DNA from: an uncultured delta proteobacterium
GTDB taxonomy: Bacteria > Myxococcota_A > Polyangia > Fen-1088
Direction of reading: 5' to 3'
NCBI GenBank assembly: GCA_963767925.1
Contig: CAVYGB010000002.1
Location: 2,192,761 to 2,256,760 of the forward strand
DNA: 64,000 bases
Both the position numbers and the translations under genes were made by a program. The first letter of the stretch is position 1, and each line of letters begins with the position of its first letter. Under the pieces are notes generated by a model. It was not told where the DNA came from and made no database searches. It was given only the letters and a program-made list of their open reading frames with translations. Positions 1,886-63,842 of this stretch are shown here, piece after piece.

Positions 1886-2111
1886 ACGTTGGTGGTGGTT
1901 CGAGTCCGACCAGTGCTCTGGGTTGGTAGCGGGCGGCGCCGACGGAAGGTACGCGGAGCTCGCTCCGCCCACCGGCCACATCCCCGGCAGAGCGAGGCGC
2001 TACCCCGTCTCCGAACGCCGGCGGGCGTCGACGAGCAGGTCGTCGCGCCGCTGGTACGTCGCGGCAGGGAGGCTCAAACATCGGGGCCTTCTTGCCGATG
2101 ATGAGCAGCGC

Positions 2112-3302
2112 ATGCTCGTGGCGCGCGCATCCTCCACCCCGACGGACGCGGCGGCCAACGGGCGGTCGGTGCTGCTGGTGGACGACGGCCCGCAGAACCG
2201 GGTGCTGTTCCAGGCCATCCTCGAGTTTGCCGGGTATCGGGTGCTGGTGGCCGAGGAGGGCGCCGCGGCGCTCGAGCTGCTGGCGCGCGAGCCGGTCGAC
2301 CTGATGGTGCTCGACTACATGATGCCGGGAATGGACGGGGCGGAGGTGGCTCGGCGCGTTCGGCTCGACCCCGAGCGCAGCGACCTGCCAATCGTCATGT
2401 TGACCGCGTCGCACGAGGAGAACCACATCGAGGCCGCCTTCGCAGCCGGGGCCAACGACTACCTCACCAAGCCGGTCGACCGGCGCATCCTGCTGGCCCG
2501 GGTGGCGTCCATGATCAAGGCGGCCGACGATGGCCGCCAGGCCCAGCAGGTGGTGGTGCTCGAGGGGGAGCGCCGCACCCTGCTCACCGAGATCGAGGAG
2601 GCCGCGCGCATCCAGCAGGGGCGCTTGCCGCGGCTGCCGATCACCTCGGGGGGCTGGACGCTCGCCGGGGCGCTGGTCCCCTGCCGGCACGTCGGCGGCG
2701 ACCTGCTCGACGTGATCGTGGATGGGGAGGGGGGCCTGGTGCTGGTGCTGCTCGACGTCTCGGGGCACGGGCTGGGCGCCGCCCTGGTGGCGGCGTCCAT
2801 CAGCGCCCAGGTGCGCGAGCTGGTCGCCCGGCACCCGGTGGACGAGACCGTCTACCAGCTCAACAACCTGCTGTGCCGGGAGAGCGACGACAAATACGCC
2901 TGCGTGGCCGTGCTCTCGCTGCAGGAGCGGCGCGCGGTGGTAGTGAACGCCGGCCTGCCCCCGGTCTGCCTGATCCGCGGCGGCGCCTGCATCGCGCGCT
3001 TCGACCGCGCCGGCTTCCCGCCCGGGCTGGCCGCCGACACGCGCTACGATGCCCAGACCTGCGACATCCAGCCTGGCGACCGCCTGGTGCTGATGAGCGA
3101 CGGCCTCACCGAGCCCTTCGGCCACGCGACCTCGGTCGACCCCGTCCTGCACCACCTCGGCTTGCTGTCCCCCGACCTGCACCTCGACGGGCTGAGCCCC
3201 ACCGTCCTCGGCGACCGCATGATGGCCCTCCTCCGCGAGGGCCACCCCGTCGATGTCGACGACGTCACCCTCCTGGTCGCCGAGCGCCTCCCCGCCCACT
3301 GA
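2112..3302 (+). CDS. Response regulator receiver + PP2C/SpoIIE phosphatase (RsbU-like)
   Basis: LLVDD..LDYMMP..KP receiver; GGD, DVSGHG, SDGL, DDVT phosphatase motifs. Confidence 0.9.
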   Translation: MLVARASSTPTDAAANGRSVLLVDDGPQNRVLFQAILEFAGYRVLVAEEGAAALELLAREPVDLMVLDYMMPGMDGAEVARRVRLDPERSDLPIVMLTASHEENHIEAAFAAGANDYLTKPVDRRILLARVASMIKAADDGRQAQQVVVLEGERRTLLTEIEEAARIQQGRLPRLPITSGGWTLAGALVPCRHVGGDLLDVIVDGEGGLVLVLLDVSGHGLGAALVAASISAQVRELVARHPVDETVYQLNNLLCRESDDKYACVAVLSLQERRAVVVNAGLPPVCLIRGGACIARFDRAGFPPGLAADTRYDAQTCDIQPGDRLVLMSDGLTEPFGHATSVDPVLHHLGLLSPDLHLDGLSPTVLGDRMMALLREGHPVDVDDVTLLVAERLPAH

Positions 3303-5154: not shown

Positions 5155-5340
5155 GCGTGCTCGTGGGCGTGTTCGAGCGCGTGTTCGTGTTCGTGTTCGA
5201 GTTCGTGTGGGGCGAGCGTTGAGCGGCCAGGCGGCTCTCGGTGCGCGTAAATCACGCGAGCCGAGGCCCGCGGGCCGAACACGCTCACCACACACGGACA
5301 CGAACTCGAACACGCGCTCGCACACGAGCACGACCACGAC
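5155..5340. repeat. Long imperfect inverted repeat made of GTGTTC/GAACAC-type hexamer arrays
   Basis: 5155-5228 is approximately the reverse complement of 5272-5340. Confidence 0.7.
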
Positions 5341-5610
5341 AGCCGCGGCAGTCATCAGGGTTGGTGGCGGTGCATGCCGGCGAGCCGAGTGAGCATCGCG
5401 CACAGCCGGTCGAGCAGAGACATCACCGCTTCGATCTCGGTATCGGGAGCAAGTCCCAGGATTGCAACGCCTCCAAGGCGGCTGCCGCCTCGGACGCTTC
5501 GCCTCTGGCGGTGCGGAACCGTGAGATCCGGTCGGCGCCCGTTCGGCTGGATGCCTCGGCGATGCCCAGGTATGCCGACAACAGCGCGCCGAAGCTGGTC
5601 CTGCAACAAG

Positions 5611-6305
5611 CTCAAGACCGGGTGCCAATGGGATGCCATCCCCCGCGAGTTCGGCAGCGGCAGCGTGTGCTACCAGCGGTTCCAGCAGTGGCGAGCGGCC
5701 GGCGTGTTCCACATGATGCACGTGGAGATGGTCCTCTACTACGACCAGCATGTTGGCGTCGACCTGAGCTGGTGCTCGCTCGACAGCGCCACTGTCAAGG
5801 CACCAAAAGGGGGGACCTCACCGGCCCCAGTCCGACCGATCGGGCCAAACTCGGGACCAAGCGCCACATCCTGACCGACGCCGACGGCGTGCCCCTGGCC
5901 GTCACCATCACAGGGGCGAACGTGCACGACAAGTGGATGGTGGGCCAGACCCTGGATGCCATGGTCCTGCGGGGCCCTCGTGGTCCACGTCGCCCCAAGA
6001 GCTTGTGCCTCGACAAAGGCTACGACTACGACTACGCCGACTGTGAGCAGGAGGTTCGCCGCCGTCGAATCGTTCCTCACATCCGCCGGCGAGGCGAACC
6101 ACCACTGGTCGGCTGTGTTCACGGTAGGCCGCGACGCTGGGTGGTCGAGCGCACCAACAGCTGGCACAACCGATATCGAGGTCTTCTCATCCGCTGGGAA
6201 CGCAAAGCCGAGAATTACTTAGCCTTCGTTCGGCTCGCCTGTCCGCTGATTGCCTTCAACGCTGCCTCTCGTGCGTAATTCACAGGTTCCAGCGGCTCAC
6301 TCTTA
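5611..6305 (+). mobile_element. IS5-family transposase, 5'-truncated; two ORFs joined by a -1 frameshift
   Basis: OrfA LKTGCQW..CYQRFQQW..LDSATVKAPKGG; AAAAGGGGGG slippery site at 5805-5814; OrfB GTKRHILTD, DKGYD, RWVVERTNSW ending 6278; N-terminus and left end absent. Confidence 0.85.
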
Positions 6306-6846
6306 AGGCCAATGCCGGTGGGTGGGGACGCGGACCAGGGTCACGACTCGGGCGACCTCATTCCCTGCATCACGCACCCGCAACGTGAGGTAGGTCCCCA
6401 CCCGACCGTCGAGCGCGCGCGAAGTGTTGAGACCGGACGCTTGCACGTCGTTGCCGTCGATCGACAGGATCATGGCGCCGGGACGAATGCCGGCCCTTTC
6501 CGCCGATGATCCGGGGGCGACCGTGAGAACCTCGACTTCCGCCCGCGCCCGGATCGACAGTTCCACCCAACCGTGCTTCCGGCGATCCAGGAGCCCGAAG
6601 GTGCCGAGGTCGAGCACCATACTGGTCGGGGGCACTTCGAACCACCGCCGGTCTCCCGCGTGGCGCCGGGACGGGTCGGTGATGTGGAGCTGTATCAGCT
6701 GTCCCGGGGGCACCGCCGGGATGGAGAATTTGCCGGCGGCGTCGCCGCGGCCTTCCAGCGCGTGGCTCAGGCGAGAGCGAGCGCCGCCACCGCCGACTGC
6801 CCCTGAGGTGTTCTCTTTGGAGACATATCTCGCCGTCTGACCGTTC
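6303..6846 (-). pseudogene. C-terminal fragment of a PDZ-domain protein
   Basis: VAPGSSAERAGIRPGAMILSIDG PDZ motif; frame open to a TAG near 6848 without a convincing start. Confidence 0.55.
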
Positions 6847-6891
6847 TAGACTGACCACCGTTCGTGGGTTCATCGTTTCAGGAGGAACAGC

Positions 6892-7188
6892 ATGAAAAAC
6901 GCACGCGCGCTACTGACGGCAGCAGCCGTGGGCCTTCTCGCCTTCCATGGGTCACCGTTCACTGCGGATAGCGCTCGGGGTTCGCCGGCCTGCCAGCGCC
7001 CCATGGGCTTTCATATCGATTGCTCATGTCCATCGGGAGTCGGGCGGGGCTGCATATGTGCGCCCTGCCAGGTACCCGGTGGGATCTGGTGCCAGGAGCG
7101 AGACTCGGAGACCTGCAATGCCTGCGGCCTCGAATACACGCAAGGGTGCGACCAGTTCGGATCGTGCAACTGTCGGGGCGAATCGTAG
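6892..7188 (+). CDS. Small secreted Cys-rich peptide (12 Cys)
   Basis: AGGAGG RBS, N-terminal signal peptide, 12 Cys in the mature part, ends CDQFGSCNCRGES. Confidence 0.8.
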   Translation: MKNARALLTAAAVGLLAFHGSPFTADSARGSPACQRPMGFHIDCSCPSGVGRGCICAPCQVPGGIWCQERDSETCNACGLEYTQGCDQFGSCNCRGES

Positions 7189-7262
7189 TGCCGGGGAGTG
7201 GCAGCGCGGCCGCCCGGCCAGGGAGCATTCGGGGACGATGGAGATCGCGCCTCCCGCTGACC

Positions 7263-7961
7263 ATGGCCGCCGTGGCATGTGGTCTGACGGCTTTTGTCCT
7301 CTGGCGGATCTTCTCTCCGGCTTCCATGGCCAACTCGCGATCTGTCGCCGCCGAGCGATCGGCAGCTTCCACGGCACGAAGGCCCACCCACGGGTCCGAT
7401 CGCAGGATCCCGGGGTTCGCTCAGGGAGTGCCGACTTTCACGCGCTCGCAGAGCGGCCAACCAGCCATACAGGATGTGCCGGGGGCGCCCGGATACGATC
7501 CGACGAATTTTTCCGGCCTGGTCTCGATGAGCAAGGTGTTCGAGGCCGAGCCCAGGGACGAGCAATGGGCCGGTCGGATCGAAGCCTGGATCAGTGCCAG
7601 GCTGGTAGAGGATCTGCGTTCGATCGCACCCCTGGTGAAAGCTACCGTTGAATGCCGAACGACGGCCTGCCGGTGGCGTTGGTCCGCACCGCAGGAAGCA
7701 CAACCGAACACCGAAGAGGTCATGCGCTGGGTTCAGCGAACCTTGTACATGGGCTCAATCACCGAGAACACGGGGCGAGACGAGATCACGACTGCATATT
7801 TTGGGGGAGGGAGGGGCTTCACGGGTTTGCAGATGGGCGATGCCGCCGCGTTGATAGAGCGGCTGAAACACCGCCGAGCATCAATCTTGCGCAGCATCCA
7901 CGAGGGCCGCCGGTCGCATCTGGACGCGCATATCCCGCGAGCGGCGTGGCCGAAGCTCTGA
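7263..7961 (+). CDS. Membrane-anchored hypothetical protein with YDP..EPR..W..E..ECRxxxC motif
   Basis: N-terminal TM helix; clearly similar to 60324..60956; start uncertain (frame opens at 7020). Confidence 0.7.
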   Translation: MAAVACGLTAFVLWRIFSPASMANSRSVAAERSAASTARRPTHGSDRRIPGFAQGVPTFTRSQSGQPAIQDVPGAPGYDPTNFSGLVSMSKVFEAEPRDEQWAGRIEAWISARLVEDLRSIAPLVKATVECRTTACRWRWSAPQEAQPNTEEVMRWVQRTLYMGSITENTGRDEITTAYFGGGRGFTGLQMGDAAALIERLKHRRASILRSIHEGRRSHLDAHIPRAAWPKL

Positions 7962-7984
7962 GCAGGGCCTCAGGAGGATCTCGA

Positions 7985-8656
7985 ATGACTGCGTTCGCAC
8001 GCTGGTTGCCGGAAGTGGCGTGGTTCGGATTGGTGGCAGCCGGGACGTTTGGCGTAGCTGCCGCCGTTGCGACCGGTTTCGGCGAGGGCGACAGCTCGCG
8101 CCCGCTGAGCCAGGTGGCGCCTGACCACGTAGCACCCGGGCGGTCAGAAGTGGCGAGGGAGCAAGCACCGGCGTCTGCCCGCAGAGCCGCGGCTGGTGAA
8201 AACCTGGGGCGGCTCACCGAGTCCGTCCCCAGCCGGGTTCCGGTGCCCCCGCTCACGGCCCTCGATCGCGCGGCGGTGCACTCGGCGGAGGCCAGCGCGT
8301 TGCGAGGCGCCCTGGTCCAGGCCATCAACCCCTATGTCTTTCGCTCACCGGGATGTCTGCCCGCGGATCATCCCGAGCTGACCGTGGCTCAGTTCGACCT
8401 TCAGGTGCAGTCATCGAGACAAGAGGCCACGGTGACGGGAACCAGGAGCCTCCGTGTGATCGATGGCCCCGCCCTCGACCCGAAGATCCTCGACTGCTTC
8501 CTGTCCAGGGTTCCGGAGCCCCTCTTCGTGACCCCGCCATCGGGCACTGCCTTTCCCGAATTCCAGGGAGACGCCGCCGTCCGGATGTTCCTGAGCGGCA
8601 CCCCCGGCTGCAAGCCCGACGGACAGCCTCCGGCCGCTTCGTCTGACTCTCTCTAG
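7985..8656 (+). CDS. Membrane-anchored hypothetical protein with a two-Cys C-terminal domain (possibly AgmX/PglI C-terminal-like)
   Basis: AGGAGG RBS; N-terminal TM helix, low-complexity linker, C-terminal domain with a Cys pair. Confidence 0.65.
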   Translation: MTAFARWLPEVAWFGLVAAGTFGVAAAVATGFGEGDSSRPLSQVAPDHVAPGRSEVAREQAPASARRAAAGENLGRLTESVPSRVPVPPLTALDRAAVHSAEASALRGALVQAINPYVFRSPGCLPADHPELTVAQFDLQVQSSRQEATVTGTRSLRVIDGPALDPKILDCFLSRVPEPLFVTPPSGTAFPEFQGDAAVRMFLSGTPGCKPDGQPPAASSDSL

Positions 8657-9198
8657 CAGCGCCACCACCCAAGTTTTGACTTCGATGTTGCTCAGCGATC
8701 GAGGCAGACACGATCCGCCCGGAAGATCCGCCGCGGCCGTCCACGACATTCCGTCCAGGGACGCGAGACGGTCGCCGGTACGAATCCCCCGATTGAACCG
8801 TCGAAGCTCGCTCCCGTCCTCGGTCAGGTAGACCAGGCCTTCCAAAAAGGCTCTGGTTGGATCCGGTCAGAGCTCCGCTTCTCCTTTGAAGCGGCGGTCC
8901 CGGCATGCCATTCGGAAATGCTGGACCTGCTCAGGGGGCGGCTCGCCCGGCCGGCGTCATGGGGTCGTGCCCTTTCAGAGCTGACACCACTCCCCGCCGT
9001 CGGAGAGTTGCACTCCTGGCATTCGTCCGGGATGTCGACCAGGTCGCGCGCCTCCGTCGTATCGGAGACGCGTCGAGCGCCAAATCGGTTCTATGGGGCC
9101 GTATCGAAGGCCGCACGACCAATCATCGAGTGACATATACCATCGAGTCATATAAAAATGTCCCCACAACTGCGGAGGCTGGCAACAGGAGGCGACCC

Positions 9199-9747
9199 GT
9201 GACCGAGTCAGTTTCGACGGTGGTCCTCATCGATGACGATGTCTCATTCACCCATCGTCTTTCCCGGCTGCTGCGTTCGGATGGTCATTCCGTCGCGGTG
9301 GCCAGCACCGGAGCTGCTGGCATCGAATTGCTGCGAGCGGCATCGAGACCTGGAGCGATCGTTTTAGAGCCGAATCTCGCGGGGGCGGCCTGGTATCAGC
9401 TCCTCCGGCTGGCCGCCCAGCGGGTCGGCTCCTCACGGCTGCTGGTCATCACCGCCTTCTGGTCAGTGGCGCTGGCCCAGGAGGCGCAGACGTCCGGGGC
9501 AGAGGTCTGTCTGCGAAAGCCGATCAGTGATAGCGAAATGAGGAGCCTGGTGAGGAGAGCACCCGCCGATCGGGCGTTCCAGGCACCCCGGGCCGGCGAC
9601 CCGCCGAGCCTCGCGGGGGTGGAGTGGGAATACGTGAACCAGGTCATCCGCGATTGTCGGGGAAATATGAGCCAGGCGGCTCGACTGCTCGGGATCCATC
9701 GGCCGTCCCTCTACAAGAAGCTGCGCAAACATCCTCCGATCCGATGA
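9199..9747 (+). CDS. RegA/PrrA-type response regulator (receiver + Fis HTH), atypical receiver
   Basis: AGGAGG RBS + GTG; VLIDDD...KP; C-terminal SLAGVEWEYVNQV..GNMSQAARLLGIHRPSLYKKL. Confidence 0.85.
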   Translation: MTESVSTVVLIDDDVSFTHRLSRLLRSDGHSVAVASTGAAGIELLRAASRPGAIVLEPNLAGAAWYQLLRLAAQRVGSSRLLVITAFWSVALAQEAQTSGAEVCLRKPISDSEMRSLVRRAPADRAFQAPRAGDPPSLAGVEWEYVNQVIRDCRGNMSQAARLLGIHRPSLYKKLRKHPPIR

Positions 9748-9757
9748 ACCTCGCTCG

Positions 9758-10162
9758 CTACTTCCAGACTTCGACTTTTAGGCCGGGGACCTTGGGGAAG
9801 CTGCGGGGGTCTCGGGTGGCGATTGACCAGGCGCGGCCCAGGGCGGTTGCCGCGATCAGGAGATCGTGAGGGCCGATGTTGGTTCCTCTTGCGGCCAGGG
9901 TCGCCCAGAGGCGTGCGTGGACGCGCGCGGTGACCTCGTCGAAAGGCAGAACCACCAGGGTGGCCAGGATGCGTTCCACGAATGCTTCGCGGCGGGCTCT
10001 CACGGCTACCGGGGCTGCGCGGTGCACGCCATGGAGCAACTCGGAAGCGGTGATGGCCGAGAGTGCGGCCCCCTCACCCGCGCGCTGGGCGAGCTTTGCC
10101 GGAAGGTCGAAGGCGCCGCGCTCCGAAGCGATGAACACACTGGAGTCGATCAGGACTCCCAG
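9758..10162 (-). CDS. vapC: PIN-domain toxin (VapC-like)
   Basis: VLIDSS, SELLHG, PHDLLIAATAL, TRD; start appears to be CTG at 10162. Confidence 0.85.
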   Translation of the reverse strand: MGVLIDSSVFIASERGAFDLPAKLAQRAGEGAALSAITASELLHGVHRAAPVAVRARREAFVERILATLVVLPFDEVTARVHARLWATLAARGTNIGPHDLLIAATALGRAWSIATRDPRSFPKVPGLKVEVWK

Positions 10163-10431
10163 GGCGACCTCGGCAGCTTGCCTTGCCGGCGCGTCAGCGC
10201 GCGGATGGTTTTGCGGTACCCGTCGTCCACCGGGGGGAGCTCCTCCAGGAGCCGCAAGAAGTCGCCGATCGTGCTCTTCGCGGCGCGGCTGCTTGCGACC
10301 GGGATTATCCGGCACACCGCTTCCCCTCCCTTTTCGACGATGAATTCCTCGCCGCGGTAGCGTACACGTGACACGACGTCCGAAAAGGATCGGGCGGCCT
10401 CCGTGGCGGAGATCTTCTTCGGCGCAGCCAT
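10150..10431 (-). CDS. Phd/YefM-family antitoxin
   Basis: ISATEAARSFSDVVSRVRYRGEEFIVEKGG; overlaps the toxin start. Confidence 0.85.
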   Translation of the reverse strand: MAAPKKISATEAARSFSDVVSRVRYRGEEFIVEKGGEAVCRIIPVASSRAAKSTIGDFLRLLEELPPVDDGYRKTIRALTRRQGKLPRSPWES

Positions 10432-10718
10432 GACAATCAGATTATCAGATTCGGGCAAGCGAACCACCCTGTGGCGACCAGGTGCGCGGGCTGGTGAGCA
10501 CGTCCCGCTGTGAATCCCGTATACAACCAGGCGGTCGCGCTCGTGCGCCCTCGCGATGTACCGGCGGGGCTGCGGGCCCGCCCGCCGAGCGCGAGGCCAT
10601 CCGCCGGGCGATCGGACGGGGCACCGACGCCCCCAGAGGGGCGGGGCTCTTGCCATCGTAGTCGGGTTCCCCCCGGCGAGCGCGGGGGGGTGTATATTTG
10701 GGGGCGGATGGTGGGGTG

Positions 10719-13700
10719 ATGCTCAGCGAAGAGGAGGCTCGGGCGCCCGCTGAGAGGGGGCCAGCGGGGCGGCAGCGGCTCGATCGGTGGCTGCACCGGC
10801 GGGCGCTGTCCCTGGACGTCTTTCTCGAGCTCGCGATCGGCCTGGCCGAGGGGCTGGATCGCCTGCACACCCGGAAGCTGCTGCACCGGCACCTTCATCC
10901 CGGCAACGTGCTGGTGGACGAGGACGGCGTTCCGGCGCTCCTGGACCCTCAGGGCGCCGAGCTGGGCGCCGATGAGCTGGCCTACATGGCTCCCGAACAG
11001 ACGGGGCGCATGGATCGGGTGGCGGACGAGCGGGCGGACCTGTATTCGCTGGGGGCGATCTACCATCGGCTGCTGACCGGGGCGCCTCCTTTTGCCGGCA
11101 CCGATCCCATCGATCTGGTGCACGCCCACCTGGCCCGCCCGCCCACGGCGCCCGAGCAGCTCAATCCGCTGGTCCCGCCCGTCCTCTCGCAGCTCGTCTT
11201 GCGGCTGCTCGCCAAGATGCCGGAGCAGCGCTACCAGAGCGCGCAGACCCTGCTGACCGACCTTTACCACGCGCGGGCACGCCTCCGTCACGACGGCACC
11301 ATCACCCCCTTCGAGCTCGGCCGTGCCGACCTGGTTTCCGAGCTGCCGCTGCCGGCGACGCTGTTCGGCCGCGAGGGCGAGCTGCAGGCGCTGCAGGCGA
11401 GCTGGGCGACGGTCGCGGCCGGTGGGTCCCGGATCGTCCTTCTGGCCGGGGCCGCGGGCGCCGGCAAGTCCCGGCTGGCCCGGGCCCTGGAGACGCAGGT
11501 GACCGCCGAGGGTCAGGGCCGTTCCCTTTCGGGAACGTTCCCCCGCCGCCAGAACGCTTCCCCCTATGCCCCGGTGGTGGAGGCGCTGAGCGGCCTGTTG
11601 CGCCGTCTCCTGGCCGAACCGGAGCCGGTGCGCGCGGCCTGGGCGCGCGGGGTCCGGCTGGCCCTGGGCCGCAACGCCGCCGTCATCACCGGGCTGATCC
11701 CCGAGCTGGCCCGCCTGATCGGCCAGCCGCGGCCGGTGCGTGCCCTGGACCCGTCGGGGAACCGGAATCGATTCCAGCAGGCGTTCCTGGCGTTCATGCG
11801 GGCCCTCCTGGAACAGCAGCCGCTGCTGCTCTTTCTCGACGATCTGCAGTGGGCGGACGCGGAGTCCCTGCGCCTGGTGCAGACGCTGGCGAGCGCGCCC
11901 GACCTGTCGCGCTTGCTGCTCCTCGGGGCCTACCGCAGCGAGGGCGTCGAGCCCGAGCATCCCCTCCTGGCGACCATCGGCGCCCTCCGCGACGGGGAGG
12001 CCCGGCTCACCATCCTCGCCTTGCCGCCTCTCGAGGTGGCGAGCATCGCCGAGCTGTGCGCCGCCGCCCTGGATGCCGCGCCCGATCGGGTCTACCCGCT
12101 GGCCCAGGTGTTGCGGCGCAAGACCGCCGGCAACCCGTTCTTCGTCGAGCAGCTCCTTCGGTTTTTGCAGAAGACCGGACTGCTCCGCCGGGTCTCCGAC
12201 CGGGACGGGTGGGACTGGGAGCTGGCAGAGGTCGAGCGGGTGAACGTCACCGACAACGTGGCCGACCTGCTGATCGCCGCGCTTCACCACGTGCCCCAGC
12301 CGGTTCGCGCCGTGCTGGGTGCGGCCGCCTCCATCGGGCGGACGATCCCCCTGTCCTGGCTGGCCGTCGCCAGCGGCCAGCGCCCCGAGGAGATCGCCGC
12401 GGCGGTCCGCAGCGCGATCAGCGAGGGGTACCTGGTCGGCCTGCCCGGCGAGGCCAACGGACTCGATCCTGACGAGCAGCAGCGCTTTCAGTTCGCCCAC
12501 GACTGGTTGCAGCAGGCCTGCTTGCCGCTGCTCGCTGCCTCCGAGCAGCGGCGCCTGCACCTCGCCCTGGGGCGGCACCTGCTGTCGTCGGACCTCGAGG
12601 AGGGTCCGGCGGATGACCTGCTGCTGGCTGGGCTCGCGCACCTCGATCTCGTCCACGACGACCTCGGAACCCCGGAGGAACGGCTGCGCGTCTGCAGGCT
12701 GAACGGCCGGGCGGCCCGGCTGGCGCGGGCCACCTCGGCGTACGCCCAGGCGCTGGCGCACCTCCAGCGCGCCATCGCGCTTTTGCCGGCGGACCCCTGG
12801 ATGTACGAGCGGCCGCTCACCTTCTCGCTCTATCGCGACGCGCTCGAGTGCGCGCTGGTGTGCGACGCGCGGCCGCTGGCGGACACCCTGTTCCGGACCG
12901 CGCTCGAGGGACTGCCCCGGCCCCGCGACGCCAGCGATCTCTATCGGATCCGCAGCGACGCCGCCATGACTGGCGGCGCCATGGCGGAGGCGATCGAGTG
13001 GGCCCGCCGCGGGCTCCAGATCCTGGGGCTGGACCTGCCCGCGGCGGAGGCGGCCGCGGCGGGCGCGGAGGAGCTGCAGACCGCGCGCGCGAACCTGGCC
13101 CGGGTCACCTTCGAAGAGATCGCCAGCCGGCCCGCCCTCACCGACCCGGAGGTCGCATCCGCCATGGTGTTGCTGCGGGGGCTGCTGGCGCCCACCTACG
13201 TGACCGGCTCGGCGCTCTTCCCGTTCGTGCTGGGACGCCTGCTCAACCTGTCACTGGCGGGTGGACCTTCGGCCTCGTCGGCGACGGCCTACGCCTTTCA
13301 TGCGATGGTGCTGGCCTGCCAGAGCGGCGAGACCGCCGCCGGCCATCGCTTCGGCGAGCTGGCCCTGGCCCTCGCCGATCGGTTCGGCGACCCGGTGGAG
13401 AGGCTCGGGGCCAGCGCCGCCTTCCTCCACAACCTCGCCCCCTGGCGGACGCCCCTGCGGGCCATCGTTCCCCGCCTGTACCAGGTCCAGGCCCAAGGTC
13501 TGGAGTCGGGGGACATCCACCACGCCATGGCCTGCGCCGGCGGCGCGGCCATGATCCTCTTTCACCAGGGCGTCGAGCTCCACCGGGTGGTGCCGGCGCT
13601 CGAGGCGGTTATGGCCAGCTCGCGTCACGCCCACGTCCTGGGCAACGCCACGACCCTGGCCATCTACCGCCAGCACGCCGCCCGTCTGCAGGGCCTCGGC

Positions 13701-16941: not shown

Positions 16942-17427
16942 TCAGTTCGAGCCGGGGGCCGGCGGGGGCGGGGGCGTCGGCGGGGTCGCGGCCGGGGGGC
17001 AGGCTTCGAATGCGGCTTCGAAGCGATCGGCGCAGGCCTCGCGCTGGCCGGGGTTCGCGCGCAGGCACTGGGCGAAGGCCGTGCGCGCGGCCCGCGCGCA
17101 CTGGGCGTCACGGGCCGGTGGCGGCGGTGGGGGTGGGGGCGCCCCGGTGCACGCTCGGGCGGCGGCCTCGGCGCGATCGCTGCAAGCCTCGCGCTGGTCG
17201 GGGTTCGCGCGCAGGCACTCGGCGAAAGCCTCGCGCACATCGATCAGGCACTGCCGCTGCGCCGGGTCCCGCGCCGGGGGGGGCGGTGGGGCCGGCCGGG
17301 CGAGAGAGGAGATCGCCTCGGGCTCGGGGGACGAAAGGTCGGCGCCGTCCTCCTCCGGCCCGGCGCAGGCGGCGAAGAGGCAGGCGATCGCGAGCGTCGA
17401 GCTGGCGCATGCAGTTCGTAGGGTCAT
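16942..17427 (-). CDS. Lipoprotein with two Cys-rich helical repeats
   Basis: AGGAG RBS, LFAAC lipobox, repeat C..AFAxCLRANPxQREACxDRxEAAxxAC twice, proline linkers. Confidence 0.8.
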   Translation of the reverse strand: MTLRTACASSTLAIACLFAACAGPEEDGADLSSPEPEAISSLARPAPPPPPARDPAQRQCLIDVREAFAECLRANPDQREACSDRAEAAARACTGAPPPPPPPPARDAQCARAARTAFAQCLRANPGQREACADRFEAAFEACPPAATPPTPPPPPAPGSN

Positions 17428-45418: not shown

Positions 45419-45464
45419 GGCTGGGACCCGCGGTGGCGGCGACAGGTGCCTCGCCCTTCGACCC

Positions 45465-48400: not shown

Positions 48401-48605
48401 CTGCTTCGGCTCTCTCCTCCTTTGGCAGAGCGCCGAGCACCCGCTCGGCCTCGCGTCCGATGTGCCTGGCCAGGATCGTCGGCGCGGTCTCTGCGGTCAC
48501 CGACCGGAAGCCCGGCCGACGGTGCGAGTCCAGCGCCGCGATTGCCGCTTCCAGCTCTTCCGTCACCGGATGTTCGTAAACTCCGTCCGGAAGACTTCGC
48601 GGCAC
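45465..48605 (-). CDS. PLD - SF2 helicase - DUF3427 protein (SauUSI-like type IV restriction enzyme)
   Basis: [54 protein letters not shown]. Confidence 0.9.
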
Positions 48606-48763
48606 GTCCTATCTTCTCACGTCCGTGCGGGTCGGCCCAGCGTGGAGCAAGGTTCAGAGTCGGGCAGTGGCAGACCGACGTACATACGCGCTCGCCCGGC
48701 CCGCCAACCTGGGCCTTTGACAGGCGGCCGCTGTGGACCATGACGCTAGCGTCGTCTCAGAGC

Positions 48764-49306: not shown

Positions 49307-49393
49307 CGCGTCGCAGGACACCGACACGCTTGTGGAACGGCCGCGTGCTCTTGAGCTCCCGCTCTGCTGCACCATTTTGAAGCTGGATGGTCC

Positions 49394-51256: not shown

Positions 51257-51415
51257 GATTATCCTCGCATTAAAAGAGATCGGCTGAGGCCGTAGGGCCG
51301 AGTCGTTCGCGCGAACGGTGTCTGGGTTCACATGCTCGGCCCGGCGGGCAGGCTGATGTGGGCCTGCTAGAAGATCGCCATTACCGCCGTTCTCTTGAGG
51401 CTCCGAGGGCGTGAT

Positions 51416-52008: not shown

Positions 52009-52188
52009 CCTGCGGGTGCCGTCTGACACGCGCCGAGCGCGTGCCGCGTGTCGACACGCTCCAAGCCGGCACCACCATTGGGCCCACCGGCGACCGAAGG
52101 ATCTTCGAGCGACGGCTGGTCAGCACGCAAGCGCGGCGAAAGCCGGGCTCTCAAGCGAGGCCATCCTGGCGTCGATGTAGGAGACGCC

Positions 52189-58415: not shown

Positions 58416-59312
58416 TCACCTCGGCTGGTCCGGCGGCAGGACGAAGAAGGTCGGCACCCTGGCGTGGGCCCGGTGCGCTGGGACGGCGACGCGGGCCGCC
58501 TCCTCCTGGAAACGTTCGACCAGGCAGGTGCCGGCGGCGCTTTCGACCAGCGGTCCGTCGACCGTGAAGCTGATGCCGTTGCTCAGTTCCTCCGTCGCGG
58601 GAGGGGGCTCTTCGTTCTCCGGTCGGCCGATCCAGACCACCAGGTCGAGACGCCCTCGCACGCCATGCTGGGTCCAGCAGGCCTCCCGGGACGGGCCCTG
58701 CCTGAATGCCTGAACCAGGCGAACCAGCGCCGCCTTGCTCTCGCCCCCGCTGGGATCACGGAGGGGGACACGCATGGTCTTGGGGCCGATCTCGGCCTCT
58801 TCACCCACCCGGGCGGCAAACTCGACCGTACGGTAGAGGGTGCGTTGCCATCCCTCCCCGGGCGGCTCGCCGGAGAAGGCCAGATCGCAAACAGCTCCGC
58901 GGCAGGTCACGTCGGGCGGTGCGTGGCCCGTTCCGTTGCCGAGCGCCCGGTCGACAATCGTGCGGAGCTCGGCGGCGGCCTCCGGGTTGGGTGCCCCTCG
59001 GCTGAACCTCTGCTCCAGGGGCTGGTTCCTCTCCACCTCTGTGAGCAGGGCCGATCGCTGCTGCTCCAGCTTCACGATGGCGGCTTCACACGCGAGCCCG
59101 CCCAGCGACCCCCGATCTCCGTGGGCGCCGGGCAGTGGCAGCAAGACGGCCCGTCCATCGTGACCGGGAGGCCTGGCCCGAGCCGAAGCACCGCCGGGCG
59201 AGGTTCGCTCCGGTGCCGTCGCGAGGAGCGCAACGTTGGCCATGAGGCTGGCCAGCAGCAGGATTCCGAACGCGCGCCGAGCTGCGCTGGAACGGCCGGC
59301 GTCAGCGAACAT
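58416..59312 (-). CDS. Membrane-anchored hypothetical protein (CRxxxC domain + two-Cys C-terminal domain)
   Basis: GGAGG RBS; LLASLMANVALL TM, coiled coil, VTCRGAVC; paralogous to 59302..59916. Confidence 0.75.
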   Translation of the reverse strand: MFADAGRSSAARRAFGILLLASLMANVALLATAPERTSPGGASARARPPGHDGRAVLLPLPGAHGDRGSLGGLACEAAIVKLEQQRSALLTEVERNQPLEQRFSRGAPNPEAAAELRTIVDRALGNGTGHAPPDVTCRGAVCDLAFSGEPPGEGWQRTLYRTVEFAARVGEEAEIGPKTMRVPLRDPSGGESKAALVRLVQAFRQGPSREACWTQHGVRGRLDLVVWIGRPENEEPPPATEELSNGISFTVDGPLVESAAGTCLVERFQEEAARVAVPAHRAHARVPTFFVLPPDQPR

Positions 59313-59916
59313 TGGGCCTCCCGGTGTCGTCAGCGCCACCACTCTCGCGGAGCAGGCGCAGGTAGAAATCCCGACGATAGAGGGGCTCCTTGGTCGTCGG
59401 GTCTTTCGTCCAGCCTCCTCCGGTGAACAGCACGTTGGGCGTCGCATGGCGACGCAGCTCCTCCGACTGCTGCACGCGCGCCATCCAGCCGGAGCGCCCC
59501 GACGCCTCCTTGCCCTCGAGCACGGACACCCTGCAAACGAGATCCCGGCACTCGACAAAATGGGCGGCCGCTCCGCCATCGGCGGCAAGGACCCGGGCAA
59601 GAACGCCTGTCATGCTGGCAACAGCGGTCTCGTTCGGTGTCCCGAGCGAGAACAGCCGGTTGGCGGGCAGGAGCTGGCGCAGCTCCCGAGCGGCCTCGTC
59701 AACCGACGCCGCAACCTTGCCCAGGCGTCTCGAACAGTCATCGCCGGACCCGCCAGACGTCGACCGGGAATCGGAGCGACCCCGCGCCAGGTCGCTCTCT
59801 CGACCACGGCCAGCATCCTGAAGCGACGAACCGGTATCCCGATAGATGTGCCGATAGATCAGCGCGATATTCGCAATGAGGCTCGCGGCGAGGACGGCGA
59901 CGGCGAAGCGCTTCAT
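59302..59916 (-). CDS. Membrane-anchored hypothetical protein (ECRxxxC domain)
   Basis: LAASLIANIALI TM, RLFSLGTPN, VECRDLVC, GW. Confidence 0.75.
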   Translation of the reverse strand: MKRFAVAVLAASLIANIALIYRHIYRDTGSSLQDAGRGRESDLARGRSDSRSTSGGSGDDCSRRLGKVAASVDEAARELRQLLPANRLFSLGTPNETAVASMTGVLARVLAADGGAAAHFVECRDLVCRVSVLEGKEASGRSGWMARVQQSEELRRHATPNVLFTGGGWTKDPTTKEPLYRRDFYLRLLRESGGADDTGRPNVR

Positions 59917-60094
59917 GCCAGTGACGTGTCTACCCCCGTCCAACTCCAGTCAGCAAGAGCTCACTTCGCGCCCCGGCTCAGGGCGATCCCCTGGCAGGAA
60001 AATCCCGTCGTGACATACCCCCTTCCGCGATCGAAGCTGATTGTACGGTCTCTGTCGGGTTCGTCTCGCGCCGACCGCAAAGAAGGAGCCTCAC

Positions 60095-60301
60095 ATGTAC
60101 AAGCCGCTCTTGCTTCCAGCTGTCATCCTCGGCGCCGCATTGGGAGCCAGCTACCAGTTGCCTCGCGCCGAGGCGGGCCCGTGCTCCATAAACACCGTGG
60201 ATGTGGACGGGTATTGTCTGTGCGTCACGCCCGGTTCCAGCTATGAATCGTGTGAACACCGCGCCGGCACCTGCAAGACCTCGGGCTTCTGCCAGTGCTG
60301 A
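60095..60301 (+). CDS. Small secreted Cys-rich peptide (7 Cys, C-terminal Cys)
   Basis: AAGGAG RBS; signal peptide ending AEA; mature GPCSINTVDVDGYCLCVTPGSSYESCEHRAGTCKTSGFCQC. Confidence 0.8.
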   Translation: MYKPLLLPAVILGAALGASYQLPRAEAGPCSINTVDVDGYCLCVTPGSSYESCEHRAGTCKTSGFCQC

Positions 60302-60323: not shown

Positions 60324-60956
60324 GTGAAAGCGCTGGCGACGAAGTGGTCGCTCACCCCGCTCCTGCGCTCCCGGCCGGTCCAGATCGCCCTGTGTCTTCT
60401 GGTCTGTGCCGGGGGCGCGGCGTTCGCCATCCAGTGGGCCGAACGGGCTCCACGTATCCAGACCGATCCCAGGGCGTCAGACTACGACCCGGTCGCAGTT
60501 CACCAGGCGCTGAGCGGGGGTCCTGACGGACTCGCGGACATTCATGGCCGGGAGCCACGTCACGCTGAATGGGGGCCAGCCATGGAATCCGCCCTTGCGC
60601 GGATCCTCGGGAGCGAGCTGGCAGCCAGAGCTCGATACTCGTCCGTCTCGGCTCTCGAGTGTCGAACCTTGACCTGCACGTTCGTCCTGAGCACGCCCGA
60701 GGGGCGCCCGGCCGCGGAGAGCTCGACGGCCATGATAGCGGTCCAGCTACCGGCCATTGCCGACACGATCGTCTTCACATCGGATCCACGGCCGGTTGCG
60801 ACCCGGGTCTACCTCGCCTTTCGTCCAGGCGCCCGTTCGCTGCCGGTCTGGGAGCGTTCCTACCTGCTTCAGCGTTCGCGTCTTGCGGAAAAACTGCGGA
60901 AGACGGGGGTAGCCGACCTCCGGTTCTATCCGAGTGGGACCCAACCGCAACCGTAG
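60324..60956 (+). CDS. Membrane-anchored hypothetical protein with YDP..EPR..W..E..ECRxxxC motif
   Basis: TM helix; similar to 7263..7961; start uncertain. Confidence 0.72.
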   Translation: MKALATKWSLTPLLRSRPVQIALCLLVCAGGAAFAIQWAERAPRIQTDPRASDYDPVAVHQALSGGPDGLADIHGREPRHAEWGPAMESALARILGSELAARARYSSVSALECRTLTCTFVLSTPEGRPAAESSTAMIAVQLPAIADTIVFTSDPRPVATRVYLAFRPGARSLPVWERSYLLQRSRLAEKLRKTGVADLRFYPSGTQPQP

Positions 60957-60975
60957 AGCGGAGTCTCGAGTTGAC

Positions 60976-61755
60976 ATGACCGGTGTTCGCCAGCTTGTCG
61001 TTTCCCTTCTGGTGGCCGCCGGCCTGTTCGCCGGCTCCGCCTTGGTGACCGGCACCGTCATCAGACAGGGGCGGCCGTTCCCCGATCCGGCCTCTATCCG
61101 CAGCTCCGCCAGCCGTGATCGCTACCAGGTTCCAGTTGGCGACTCCTTCGTCCAGGGGGCCCGCTCTCCCACGGTCACCATCGTCATGTTCGTCGACCTG
61201 TTCTGCCGCTCCTGCGGTGAGGCAGCCATCGCCATGGAGAGGATCCTGCAGGCCTATCCCGAAGACGTCGCCCTGGTCGTCAAGCACAGCCCTCGACGAA
61301 CGACCCGGGCAACGTCGCTCGAGGGAGCGATCTTGTGCGAGATCGGAGCGCAGAGGGGGCGTTTCTGGGACGCCTACCAGTCCTTCATGCAGCACGTGAG
61401 AGCCGGGCAGGGTCCCGAGATTGCCCTGGAGGCCACGCGGACACGACTGGGGCTGTCCAGTCCTGAGCTGGAAGAGCTACGAGGTGAGCCCCGATATTCG
61501 AAGCGGATCTTCGACGACCTTCGGCTGGCGCAACGCCTGAACGCCCGGGGAACCCCATTCTTCTTCATCAACGGCCGCGCCCTGCTTGGCAACCAGCCCT
61601 ACGACGTGTTCTCCGGGATAGTCGAGGAAGAGAGGCGACTTTCCCTGAAACGTATCTCGGCCGGGGTTTCCCGATCGCAGCTGTACGCGGAGATCGTGAA
61701 CAGCGGACGCCAGACGATGGTTCTGGAGGCGTCCGCAGCAGCCCCGACGAGATAG
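60976..61755 (+). CDS. dsbA: DsbA-family thioredoxin-fold oxidoreductase
   Basis: N-terminal anchor; VTIVMFVDLFCRSC, GTPFFFING. Confidence 0.88.
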   Translation: MTGVRQLVVSLLVAAGLFAGSALVTGTVIRQGRPFPDPASIRSSASRDRYQVPVGDSFVQGARSPTVTIVMFVDLFCRSCGEAAIAMERILQAYPEDVALVVKHSPRRTTRATSLEGAILCEIGAQRGRFWDAYQSFMQHVRAGQGPEIALEATRTRLGLSSPELEELRGEPRYSKRIFDDLRLAQRLNARGTPFFFINGRALLGNQPYDVFSGIVEEERRLSLKRISAGVSRSQLYAEIVNSGRQTMVLEASAAAPTR

Positions 61756-61779: not shown

Positions 61780-63603
61780 ATGCCGTCACCAGGTTCCGAA
61801 GCAAGCAGGTCGAGCACGGTCGCCCCGGGCCAGTGTTGTCTGGCTCCCTCCTCTCTGATCTCTCTGGTCAGTGACCGCCATTTTCTCTATCGCAAAGGCC
61901 ATGATCCCTTCCCGGTACCGGCCGAGTTGCTGGGAGCTGTTCTGGAGTACCGGACTTTCCGGCACCCGGCCGACCACGCGGCGCGCGTCGCCGCGAAGAT
62001 GGGCCTGGACGGCAAGGGCCAGGCGACGCTGAACGCGCTGCTCGAACGACTTCGGGGCGCTGGACTGCTGCTGAGCCGGGCAGACCTCCACGAAATCGGT
62101 GAAGAATCAGGCGGGGCTGGACCTCTGAAGACCGTCACGGTGATCAGCAAAGACCGCCCGGAGCTCGCCGACCGCTGCGTGCGCTCTTACGCCGCCAACG
62201 CCCTGTCAGCGGGCCGCGCACCGGAGGTCGTGCTCCTCGATGACTCGACCGACGAAGCGATCTCCCGGGAGTACCGCCGGAGGCTGGCGAAGCTCCGCGC
62301 TGATCTCGACGTGGCGGTGAGATATGCGGGAAGGGAGCGCAAGCGCCTGTTTCTGCGGGAGCTTTCGAGCACGGCCGGCGTGAGCGCCGAGACTCTGGAG
62401 ACGGCGATGCTCGGCTGTCCGGGCGTCGCGCACACGCGCGGGGCGAACACGAACTGTGCCCTGCTGGATGCGGCGGGGTCCCGGTTCCTGTGTGTTGATG
62501 ATGACTCGCTCTGCCTGCCAGCCAGGCCACCAGGGACGGAAACCGGCTTGCGGGTAAGCTCGGCTGGCGATCTCGTGCGCGCTCGACTGTATGAGGACGA
62601 GCGGCAGCTGAGAGGAGACTTCTGCGGGGTCGAGGCGGATTTCATCGGAGCCCACGAGGCACTGCTGGGGCGAACCGTCCTGGGCTGCATCGGGGAGACG
62701 GACGGAGAGCTGACCCTGGAACTGGACCATCGCGGAGAGGGCCGAATCGCGGCCAATCGCGCCCGGGTGGTGGTCAGCATGTCGTCCTTCCATGGAGACG
62801 TCGGATTGGAGTTCATGAACAACTTCTTGCTGCTCGCCATGGAGCCGCAGGCGTCGTTCCTGGAGGGACGGGACAGGTATCAGGCTGCCATGGGCGGTCG
62901 CTGGGCCTGGAAAGGCACCACGCGAACGCTCATCTCCGATCGCTGCGGCCTCCAGGGGGTTGCCATGGGCCTCTGCGCCGAACCAGGCGTCCCGCCCCTC
63001 ATGCCGTTCTTTCGCTGTGCCGACAATGTCCTGGGCGCGATGATTGGCCTTTTGCCAGAAGAACCTCAGATCGGATACACGCCCCTGTCGGTGGAACACG
63101 CCCCGGATCCCCCGCGGCCGCGGCAACCGGCGTTGGCCTGGAAGGGAGGATCGGTCTTTCGATTCTCCGATCTGGTCCTCGCTACACCGGCCGCGTGGCG
63201 CGCGCCGGTCGCGGCGACGACCCGGGAGGACGCGATCCGGACACTGGGCCGTCATTTCGTCGAGGTGAGCAGTCTGTCCCGCGCCGACGCCAGCGATCTC
63301 CTCTTTCCCTATCTCCTGGCCGCCGTGCGCGCCGAGGTCGCCGTCGTCGAGGATCTGGCCCGCCTCAGAGGAAAGGAGCCTGATTTCTGGTGGGCAGACG
63401 TGGATCGATTCATCCAGGCACGGATCGATCTCATCCAGACAGGCCGTCTGAGGTTCGCTGACGTCCCCGGCTCGCCGGAAGAGTCTCTCTCCAAGGCACT
63501 GGACCTCCTCCGCCGCTACGGCGAGGTCCTCCTCAGCTGGCCCGACATCATCGGTGCCGCTCGTCGCCTGCGCGAAGTCACGCGCCTGTCCGAGCCGATC
63601 TAG
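61780..63603 (+). CDS. GT-A-fold glycosyltransferase-like protein with possible RRE/winged-helix N-terminus
   Basis: ISKDRPELADRCVRSY, VLLDDS, GANTN..LL, FLCVDDD (DxD); N-terminal LNALLERLRGAGLL helix. Confidence 0.65.
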   Translation: MPSPGSEASRSSTVAPGQCCLAPSSLISLVSDRHFLYRKGHDPFPVPAELLGAVLEYRTFRHPADHAARVAAKMGLDGKGQATLNALLERLRGAGLLLSRADLHEIGEESGGAGPLKTVTVISKDRPELADRCVRSYAANALSAGRAPEVVLLDDSTDEAISREYRRRLAKLRADLDVAVRYAGRERKRLFLRELSSTAGVSAETLETAMLGCPGVAHTRGANTNCALLDAAGSRFLCVDDDSLCLPARPPGTETGLRVSSAGDLVRARLYEDERQLRGDFCGVEADFIGAHEALLGRTVLGCIGETDGELTLELDHRGEGRIAANRARVVVSMSSFHGDVGLEFMNNFLLLAMEPQASFLEGRDRYQAAMGGRWAWKGTTRTLISDRCGLQGVAMGLCAEPGVPPLMPFFRCADNVLGAMIGLLPEEPQIGYTPLSVEHAPDPPRPRQPALAWKGGSVFRFSDLVLATPAAWRAPVAATTREDAIRTLGRHFVEVSSLSRADASDLLFPYLLAAVRAEVAVVEDLARLRGKEPDFWWADVDRFIQARIDLIQTGRLRFADVPGSPEESLSKALDLLRRYGEVLLSWPDIIGAARRLREVTRLSEPI

Positions 63604-63842
63604 CCGGGATCGTCGGTCGCCGCATCGGTCATCAGGATGAACATCGAGACGACCTCCCGCTCCGACCCCGCCCCCGTCTTCTCGTAGATCCGCCGCCAGT
63701 ACCCCTCCACCGTCTTGACGCTGCACCCGATCTCAGCCGCCGTGGCCTTCCTGTTGCACCCCTGCAAGGCCATCCTGACGATCTCCGCCTGCCGGCCGCT
63801 GAGAGCATGGGCGGCACAAAACTTCTCCAGGCGCTTGTCCAT
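63600..63842 (-). CDS. Stand-alone LuxR-type HTH regulator
   Basis: GGAGG RBS; LSGRQAEIV..G..K..AAEIGCSVKTVEGYWRRIYEKTG. Confidence 0.88.
   Translation of the reverse strand: MDKRLEKFCAAHALSGRQAEIVRMALQGCNRKATAAEIGCSVKTVEGYWRRIYEKTGAGSEREVVSMFILMTDAATDDPG

Follow-up and report, generated by a model that had tools for sequence, protein, structure and literature searches.

The window analysed here is the terminal 64 kb (64,000 nucleotides) of contig CAVYGB010000002.1 (contig C2) of an uncultured delta proteobacterium. Its genome (G000) comprises 9.34 Mb with a GC content of 71% and is estimated to be 84% complete with 5% contamination. Two loci in the window, A and B, carry a gene for a small exported cysteine-rich peptide followed by a gene for a membrane protein, named ECR here. 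An earlier note, made from the sequence of the window alone, had taken them for two copies of a recurrent module. Both copies are real, and three further full cassettes lie elsewhere in the genome. In this study, we show that the three-gene operon type of peptide, ECR protein and a second membrane partner, the C2 protein, is real, and that the cassette of peptide and membrane partner is present in at least five copies in this genome and is kept across genera with a hypervariable peptide. The host is a soil myxobacterium with several fast-diverging copies of this small operon of a peptide and two partners.

Gene organisation of loci A and B

At locus A, pepA (6892..7188, + strand) encodes a peptide precursor of 98 aa with a basic and hydrophobic, signal-like N-terminus, an A-x-A-like site and 12 Cys behind it. 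The mature part of about 70 aa is acidic and ends in CDQFGSCNC. The sequence AGGAGG is found 6 nt 5' of the pepA ATG. The pepA stop overlaps GTG 7188 in the frame of ECR_A (TAGTG), and this GTG is the presumed start of ECR_A (7188..7961, +; alternative ATG 7263), a bitopic inner-membrane protein. ECR_A consists of a short basic tail, a transmembrane (TM) helix, a disordered linker and a periplasmic domain with the motifs YDP and EPRD..WA...E and a VECRTTAC hairpin. The bitopic two-Cys protein C2_A (7985..8656, +) starts at ATG 7985, 23 nt after the ECR_A stop.

Locus B opens with pepB (60095..60301, +), which encodes a precursor of 68 aa ending in CKTSGFCQC, with seven Cys in a mature part of about 41 aa. 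ATG 60095, with GAAGGAG 6 nt before it, is the true start. ECR_B (60324..60956, +), a second bitopic protein with an ECR domain, presumably begins at GTG 60324; an ATG at 60201 would overlap pepB by 100 nt. Distances to the following genes are about 23 nt.

Peptide genes are linked to ECR genes

The earlier note based the kinship of the two peptides on common motifs. A hydrophobic N-terminus with an A-x-A-type site, an early CxC, SETC or YESC and the Cys-rich ends are literally present in pepA and pepB, but similarity from peptide to peptide is unsupported (BLASTP E-value (E) 0.94). Both being Cys-rich, they could have such motifs in common by chance. The firmer evidence comes from position. 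A screen of six-frame open reading frames (ORFs) of 50-120 aa with an ATG start, a K/R plus hydrophobic N-terminus and at least seven Cys after residue 25 returned only nine candidates in 9.3 Mb, pepA and pepB among them. Five of the nine lie directly upstream and on the same strand of ECR genes, at loci A, B, P2, P3 and P6, and so precede five of the 11 ECR genes of the genome. With about 12 kb of qualifying target in 18.7 Mb of strand-specific positions, a binomial probability computed by hand comes to about 1e-14. The linkage of peptide and ECR genes is therefore far beyond chance.

That the small ORFs are not genes at all and adjoin ECR genes incidentally is highly improbable. It would agree with their poor scores in a codon model of native genes and with the lack of any relative of pepA. 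However, the same model scores the whole island poorly, including the clear gene ECR_A, and codon-usage scoring was set aside since it did not discriminate within low-GC islands. The linkage of five of nine candidates to ECR genes is not expected of spurious ORFs. Neither is a Shine-Dalgarno-like motif at -16 to -7 in 11 of the 13 peptide ORFs from this genome and its relatives (15.2% of 20000 random ATGs have one), nor a cysteine framework common to peptides of three genera. This 6-Cys framework, CxxC…C-x5,6-GxG…C…C-x4,5-C, occurs in five peptides; the remaining peptides have 7-12 Cys in unrelated spacing. Over the 200 nt upstream of each peptide gene the GC content is 0.42-0.66, and k-mer counts in front of the 13 genes revealed no shared promoter motif, the regions being merely richer in AT.

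The peptides are hypervariable orphans. None of the 13 belongs to a Pfam or NCBIfam family; NCBIfam gave nothing at E<=0.1 and just four unrelated chance matches at E 0.12-1.7. A word-indexed homology search of 5.8 billion proteins returned only pepA itself as a relative of pepA, and the best ESM Atlas score for pepA, 0.81, is uninformative. A profile of the 6-Cys peptides (A6) recovered only its own four training members from 41 genomes, so that this search is no independent test. Judged by eye, the cleavage site looks like that of signal peptidase I. The lipobox [LVI][ASTVI][GAS]C is absent from the peptides; AEA, AKA, AQA, AVA or TLA precede the first Cys, or the Cys is further in.

The net charge of the mature peptides ranges from -11 to +2, most of them being acidic, and they abound in aromatic residues. 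Their wealth of Cys, Asp and Glu, with net charges down to -11, raises the question of periplasmic metal handling, in which the peptides would be metallothionein-like and ECR and C2 accessory envelope proteins. After one locus, L058, a MerR regulator and a protein with weak likeness to MerC are indeed encoded, but it is the only one of 38 loci with metal genes nearby. The cysteines of such exported peptides are usually disulfide-bonded, and neither hypervariability nor an island location would be expected. We consider this explanation very unlikely.

The ECR protein family

ECR_A and ECR_B are homologous (BLASTP E 2e-6, 27% identity over 143 aa), as the earlier note had surmised from a TM-anchored protein after each peptide, and they belong to a family of 11 members in this genome, found by tblastn and an iterated hidden Markov model (HMM); ECR_B is a member at 1.1e-50. 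With a profile built from 13 members, 2283 cluster representatives are found at E<=1e-3; the number falls to 577 at E<=1e-10 and to 46 at E<=1e-30. The length of most is 205-260 aa. In the ECR alignments (A1/A2), E96, E107, C131 and C136 are invariant and R98, W102 and A103 nearly so. The domain has an invariant Cx4C hairpin together with an E-x-R-x3-W-A-x3-E helix.

ECR is a family without a Pfam or NCBIfam model and without a clear solved fold. Neither ECR_A nor ECR_B matches Pfam or NCBIfam, and in a scan of 106 members no Pfam domain covered the ECR part. The AlphaFold2 (AF2) model of ECR_A (pLDDT 88.0, pTM 0.73) has a TM helix at residues 2-17, a disordered linker and a domain at 70-232, in which the order is helices, a β-hairpin that the two Cys flank, one helix, another hairpin and more helices. 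Foldseek found no relative of this fold at E<=1e-3, and a profile search of the sequences in the Protein Data Bank (PDB) gave 0 matches. A phage tail-terminator or ring-building type of α/β domain was considered and rejected: the best match in the VIA structure scan, at Z 5.2, did not stand above the rest and is generic α/β. The word-indexed search found two relatives of ECR_A only, and its nearest neighbours in the ESM Atlas are unnamed clusters, mostly from Myxococcota.

Locus B holds two more distant relatives of the ECR domain. The bitopic protein m1 (59302..59943, - strand), divergent from pepB, has an ECR-like core (…VECRDLVC…), and its paralogue m2 (58416..59312, -; m1 vs m2 BLASTP E 9e-9) carries an extra two-Cys domain at the C-terminus. 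Both are linked to ECR by hhalign (probability 78%, E 1.9e-5) through the core …F..pNP…ECR..vC…. PADLOC, which models known anti-phage defence systems, assigned 0 families to pepA, ECR_A, C2_A, pepB, ECR_B, m1 and m2.

The C2 protein, a third component

Paralogues of C2_A lie immediately downstream of the ECR gene at P2, P4, P5 and P6, as found with a C2 HMM, and the C2-linked copies in this genome number six. A wider profile (A4) gave 15 hits at E<=2e-12 in 41 related genomes. Fourteen of the 15 abut an ECR hit, and the remaining one begins 252 nt away from a contig end. The genome of the same genus (G001) has six C2 hits. C2 was found in five of these genomes and ECR in 14. The word-indexed search found one relative of C2_A, on the same 165-kb contig as a relative of ECR_A. 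In the A4 alignment C124 is invariant and C171 nearly so.

No TonB_C, TolA or other Pfam or NCBIfam family matches C2 at E<=0.1, and a profile-based search among PDB sequences turned up no relevant match. The AF2 model of C2_A consists of a helix (9-30), a low-confidence stretch (31-90) and an ordered domain (about 90-205) with pLDDT >90. In the VIA scan, C-terminal domains of the TolA/TonB type take 14 of the top 17 rows (Z 6.3 to 3.2), the best being TolA 4g7x_B (Z 6.3, root mean square deviation 3.6, 96 residues), followed by 2x9a_B (5.7), 1tol_A (5.7) and TonB 5lw8 (4.7). The modelled C2 domain thus resembles TolA/TonB C-terminal domains in a consistent manner; the likeness is only moderate, because Z is below 8 and Foldseek found nothing for this domain at E<=1e-3. 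The TM segment of C2_A has no His. Among the neighbours scanned at the loci no ExbBD or TolQR genes were found, a result that applies to these neighbourhoods and not to partners elsewhere in the genome, which were not searched for.

The earlier note had also likened C2_A to the C-terminus of m2, a likeness that finds no statistical support. The best BLASTP E is 0.44 and profile-profile comparison gives E 0.098 at a probability of 0.6%, though the two Cys align in register. A relationship of C2 to ECR was rejected, since profile comparison shows the two to be unrelated.

Recurrence and evolution of the cassettes

We examined 38 ECR loci, 11 from this genome, 10 from the same-genus genome G001, nine refetched from other genera and eight with 1.5-kb flanks only. 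A small exported Cys-rich ORF lies upstream of ECR at 13 of them: five in this genome, five in G001 (L045, L047, L048, L049, L051), two in G031 (L057, L058) and one in G281 (L060). Two more loci have a variant, a Cys-rich fragment at a contig edge (L015) or a Cys-rich protein of 399 aa (L056). C2 adjoins ECR at 15 of the 38, and P4, P5 and L061 are ECR-C2 pairs without a peptide. The proposal of diversified multi-copy cassettes of a peptide and a membrane protein, unnamed in the libraries, is supported: ECR, C2 and all 13 peptides lack a Pfam or NCBIfam match.

In a maximum-likelihood tree of 30 ECR domains the median terminal branch measures 1.14 changes per site. One conserved clade (P7, L052, L054, L053, L055; support 100/100) is free of peptides, and three of its members stand in a rhaM-linked context. 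A second clade, fused to DsbA (97/98), never occurs with a peptide. Of 21 long-branched rows, 15 have an upstream Cys-rich ORF. The expectation that ECR homologues have a Cys-rich peptide as neighbour thus stands in part: pairing is seen at 13 loci, and at two more in variant form, but the conserved and the DsbA-fused clades are never paired. Peptide pairing is hence a property of the fast-evolving part of the ECR family, not of ECR proteins generally. As a separate observation, in three genera (L007:1936-5285, L052:2070-5496, L054:2583-3997) the gene before the conserved high-GC ECR paralogue encodes an L-rhamnose mutarotase, and in two of the three the gene after it encodes a DUF3160 protein.

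The cassettes lie in low-GC islands. The GC content of the five peptide loci and P4 is 0.59-0.67, that of the other five ECR loci 0.70-0.73 and that of the contigs 0.70-0.72. Their neighbours include an IS5-type transposase and a PIN/Phd pair at locus A, a transposon with rve and AAA_22 at P4, MmeI at P6 and an island with restriction, WYL and GmrSD genes at locus B.

A phylum-wide search found matches at E<=1e-8 in 5 of 401 genomes, which is an undercount because just seven candidates were scored per genome. Searches for related loci gave none with A3 in genome contigs or metagenome contigs and none with P0003 in metagenome contigs. For window positions 6800-8700, four soil-metagenome DNA runs with small shares and no RNA run are listed.

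Two further observations concern the make-up of single cassettes. A lipoprotein family, 'X' (312-345 aa, with a lipobox, E 1e-6 to 1e-19, no Pfam match), is encoded between peptide and ECR in three genera (L045:1610-2647, L058:550-1560, L060:2052-2990); tblastn found no copy in G000. The P2 cassette of peptide, ECR and C2 continues with a protein of 169 aa and a vitamin-K-dependent-carboxylase-like protein with an HTTM domain (E 1.2e-7; L002:1003-2001 (-), G000, contig C2:596002-597000).

ECR domains are fused to DsbA-like domains and sigma factors

The ECR domain is recurrently tied to disulfide enzymes and to extracytoplasmic function (ECF) sigma factors. The P1 protein (L001:831-5435; G000, contig C2:216830-221434) joins ECF sigma regions 2 and 4, three DsbA-like domains and a terminal ECR domain, and P8 encodes a DsbA-ECR protein beside an ECF sigma gene. 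In G001 we found a protein with two DsbA domains and ECR (L044) and a sigma-DsbA-ECR protein (L046:2761-5517). Among the best 150 representatives 13 exceed 300 aa; 10 of these have DsbA-like domains and four also sigma regions. The four (P0097, P0119, P0131, P0144) have a single TM segment at about 186-221, and CxxC is kept in two of them and lost in P0119 and P0144. DsbA is fused N-terminally to ECR in 11 of 106 scanned A2 members, a count that reflects the deliberate inclusion of long proteins in A2. In L010:1416-3905 (-) and L011:1726-3210 (-), a domain of the m1 type continues the reading frame after ECF sigma regions 2 and 4; a weak TonB_C-like ORF (E 0.007) lies beside the latter. The sigma-TM-DsbA-ECR proteins, single chains with one to three DsbA-like domains on the periplasmic side and ECR at the C-terminus, have the appearance of sigma factors that cross the membrane and end in a thiol-oxidoreductase-like sensor. 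In the literature searched there was no description of the cassette, the ECR domain or sigma-DsbA fusions, and the main text of the ECF re-classification paper does not contain 'DsbA' or 'thioredoxin' (PMC7826278).

The earlier note had foreseen neither this tie to thiol-disulfide oxidoreductases and ECF sigma factors nor a TolA/TonB-like third component, and both broaden the range of explanations. Two explanations draw on the fusions. The first is oxidative folding or escort. ECR would be a client-holding domain for multi-disulfide polypeptides, working with DsbA-type oxidoreductases and, in the cassettes, retaining its own hypervariable peptide at the membrane until the disulfides are set; the role of the peptide itself is left aside. 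Cysteine chemistry is common to all contexts of ECR, from the Cys-rich peptides at 13 of 38 loci to the invariant Cx4C in ECR itself. DsbA stands N-terminal to ECR in P1, P8, L044, L046 and the 11 A2 members, and DsbD is encoded beside ECR in L050. At locus B the gene for a membrane-anchored, DsbA-like thioredoxin-fold protein (60934..61755, +) directly follows ECR_B, whose end it overlaps or closely trails. This protein matches the DSBA family (PF01323, E 3.7e-12, above cut-off) and Thioredoxin_4 (E 1.9e-8) and has a CRSC active-site motif, and is DsbA-like by both its fold model and its CxxC. Yet an oxidoreductase link exists at 6 of 38 loci only and is missing from most, and some fused DsbA-like domains have lost CxxC (P0119, P0144). 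Moreover, the obligate TolA/TonB-like partner is unexplained, and general DsbA normally needs no client-specific helper. We rank a folding escort third, on account of DsbA fusions and adjacency, and judge it rather unlikely.

The second is peptide signalling, with the Cys-rich peptide as a periplasmic or extracellular signal and ECR as its sensor; in the cassettes the signal would be passed on to nearby regulators, or buffered, by stand-alone ECR and the TolA/TonB-like protein. The sigma(r2,r4)-TM-DsbA-ECR proteins (P1, P0097, P0119, P0131, P0144, L046) put ECR at the periplasmic end, m1-type domains follow ECF sigma regions in L010 and L011, an ECF sigma gene adjoins P8, and an ORF with weak sigma-70 region matches adjoins L059. 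Transmembrane anti-sigma/ECF systems, such as FecR-type cell-surface signalling or sigma factors fused to C-terminal extensions, offer a parallel in so far as there are single-pass proteins with ECF sigma regions 2 and 4 in the cytoplasm whose periplasmic end is made up by an ECR-type domain; from the ECR proteins of the cassettes, sigma and anti-sigma parts are both missing.

Small regulators are also found beside cassettes. Those which the earlier note had listed in the window are present: a response regulator after C2_A that has a REC domain and a Fis-type helix-turn-helix (HTH) and lacks an adjacent kinase gene (8905..9747, +; Response_reg E 1.4e-11, HTH_8 E 3e-12; ActR/PrrA/RegA-type NCBIfam E 7.9e-19, below cut-off) and a LuxR-type HTH match at 63600..63842 near locus B. 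A GerE HTH gene lies directly upstream of the L047 peptide. In addition, PP2C (SpoIIE) genes flank L056 (920-2077) and L060 (243-1403), and a REC-PP2C gene (1923-3302) lies 3.6 kb upstream of locus A, which may be coincidence.

Against signalling, the neighbouring regulators vary from locus to locus. With so short a cytoplasmic tail, stand-alone ECR and C2 lack an output domain and could not accommodate an anti-sigma domain: the tails of ECR, m1 and m2 measure about 10-30 residues, class I anti-sigma factors need at least about 50, and none of the three matches zf-HC2 or RskA. Extreme divergence, island siting and peptide-less pairs are less expected of a housekeeping signal. The sigma fusions and the varied nearby regulators place signalling second among our explanations, and we regard it as possible, if doubtful.

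A bacteriocin-like or recognition system as the preferred reading

The cassettes probably encode a peptide that serves as a weapon or a signal, along with proteins that bind it. We tentatively prefer the reading that the cassette consists of a bacteriocin-like or recognition peptide, exported and encoded with cognate proteins for periplasmic protection and handling, while holding it to be less likely than not. It is ranked first because the cassettes are multi-copy, patchy, island-borne and fast-diverging and include orphan pairs. According to this model, the peptide would be exported by the Sec pathway, cut by signal peptidase I and oxidised in the periplasm, giving a product of 40-70 residues with 6-12 Cys. 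The bitopic ECR protein of the inner membrane would bind its own particular peptide through the α/β periplasmic domain, and the bitopic, TolA/TonB-like C2 protein would span the periplasm. The exported peptide itself would serve antagonism or recognition, as a disulfide-rich bacteriocin of myxobacteria comparable to fulvocin C. ECR and C2 may capture it at the membrane, shield the envelope of the producer, thus conferring immunity, and pass it toward the outer membrane. Peptide and partners would diversify together, giving rise to many mutually distinct cassettes per genome and to ECR-C2 pairs orphaned of their peptide. The AF2 models have both partners anchored in the membrane and turned to the periplasmic side, the compartment that a Sec-exported peptide enters first. 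The existence, linkage, architecture and diversification of the genes are established here; binding of the peptide by ECR and/or C2, toxicity, immunity and export are inferred.

Several points weigh against this bacteriocin-like reading. No toxin domain or known bacteriocin family was found in any of the 13 peptides, and their mostly acidic mature parts (-11 to +2) are unlike most membrane-active peptides. Neither an outer-membrane export system nor ExbBD/TolQR was found among the neighbours scanned. In the ECR superfamily, fusions to ECF sigma and DsbA recur and one conserved clade lies outside the islands, which fits sensing or folding better than immunity. Peptide-to-ECR binding, finally, is something we infer; a complex prediction for the ECR_A domain, the C2_A domain and mature pepA (score 0.01, mark 0.32, peptide fold uncertain) speaks neither for nor against it. 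What keeps the case from being a strong one is the acidity of the peptides, the absence of any signature of export or toxicity, and the fusions to sigma and DsbA.

A wider view would join the cassettes to the fusions. ECR might be a general periplasmic sensor or receptor for disulfide-rich polypeptides, and the cassettes a private 'peptide code' for kin identity or signalling, in which no ECR receptor and TolA/TonB-like partner but the co-encoded ones would recognise a given hypervariable peptide, while sigma-TM-DsbA-ECR proteins would turn peptide or disulfide state into transcription. We offer this as speculation, about as likely as the folding escort. If true, such a code would give myxobacteria a combinatorial system of self or kin identity or of signalling.

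Comparison with known systems

Periplasm-acting bacteriocins have membrane-anchored periplasmic immunity proteins, e.g. colicin M with Cmi. In this type an antagonistic polypeptide bound for export has as its gene neighbour a small bitopic protein with a folded domain on the periplasmic side, and orphan immunity genes, island location and quick diversification occur as well; the cassettes would be built alike. They differ from it in a tiny, disulfide-rich peptide with a plain Sec signal and in having two partners, one of them TolA/TonB-like; toxicity of the peptide, for its part, is conjectural. To known immunity proteins, ECR showed no relation in sequence and no clear one in fold.

Among myxobacterial peptides, fulvocin C has 45 residues and 8 Cys, and to our knowledge neither a genetic locus nor an immunity gene is known for it. 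The searched portions of the fulvocin literature use the word in passing only and describe no locus. Fulvocins are cited as known among the few ribosomal peptides of myxobacteria (PMC8708641). The cassette peptides are likewise small ribosomal peptides from a myxobacterium; none of the 13 has an NCBIfam match at E<=0.1, and they are likened to fulvocins by description, not by sequence.

Bacterial cis-defensins (CS-αβ) bear signal peptides, are disulfide-rich and are common in Myxococcota (PMC11561630). Their defining motif is CxxxC…CxC from helix to strand, and the words 'gene cluster', 'neighbo…' and 'immunity' do not occur in the text of that paper. The ends of pepA (…GCDQFGSCNC) and pepB (…TCKTSGFCQC) read C-x3-G-x-C-x-C and so approach the GxC γ-core plus CxC, and the N-termini are signal-like. 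The defining motif is nevertheless absent, pepA having only CxxC pairs (CAPC, CNAC) before CxC and pepB no CxxxC; in addition, most cassette peptides have 8-12 Cys and are acidic. Modifying enzymes of RiPPs, peptides that are modified after synthesis on the ribosome (radical SAM, YcaO, LanM/LanB, P450 etc.) were not found in the Pfam matches of the neighbours at the 11 own and 18 related loci.

C2 shares with TonB and TolA a layout in which a TM helix at the N-terminus is joined by a long unstructured spacer to an α/β domain of about 100 residues at the C-terminus. It differs from them by a conserved disulfide pair, by the lack of a TM His (C2_A) and by the lack of a TonB_C match.

This work defines two undescribed envelope families, ECR with more than 2000 sequence clusters and the TolA/TonB-like two-Cys family C2. 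They are accompanied by a hidden class of peptides, small, exported and disulfide-rich, that automatic annotation would call hypothetical or could miss. Should the peptides prove antagonistic, myxobacteria would have a family of disulfide-rich bacteriocins whose genes, immunity genes included, are defined, and from which stable peptide scaffolds could be drawn. Should they be signals, the sigma-DsbA-ECR fusions would suggest a new way of feeding input to ECF sigma factors. In either case the cassettes offer experimental handles in the form of cognate and swapped pairs.

Other genes in the window

Just upstream of locus A lies an IS5-type DDE transposase (5241-6278 (+), with 5374-5874), whose DDE domain and apparent N-terminal part are in different frames, suggesting a frameshift or programmed slippage. 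The regulator gene of this locus is directly followed by a PIN toxin and Phd/YefM antitoxin pair (9758-10467, -). The region 41186-56676 near locus B resembles a defence island, with a HIT-helicase-S24 fusion, PLD-helicase-DUF3427, GmrSD, two WYL/WCX regulators, an ADP-ribosylglycohydrolase and a PDC-S11 match. Two giant fusions of Ser/Thr kinase, AAA_16, GAF and histidine kinase are encoded at 10698-16187 (+, 1829 aa) and 24635-29575 (-, 1646 aa). An ORF of 161 aa (16942-17427, -) has borderline matches to eukaryote-type COX6B (E 1.1e-5; 25.9 bits, with the cut-off at 26) and to CHCH twin-Cx9C domains, which is unusual in bacteria.

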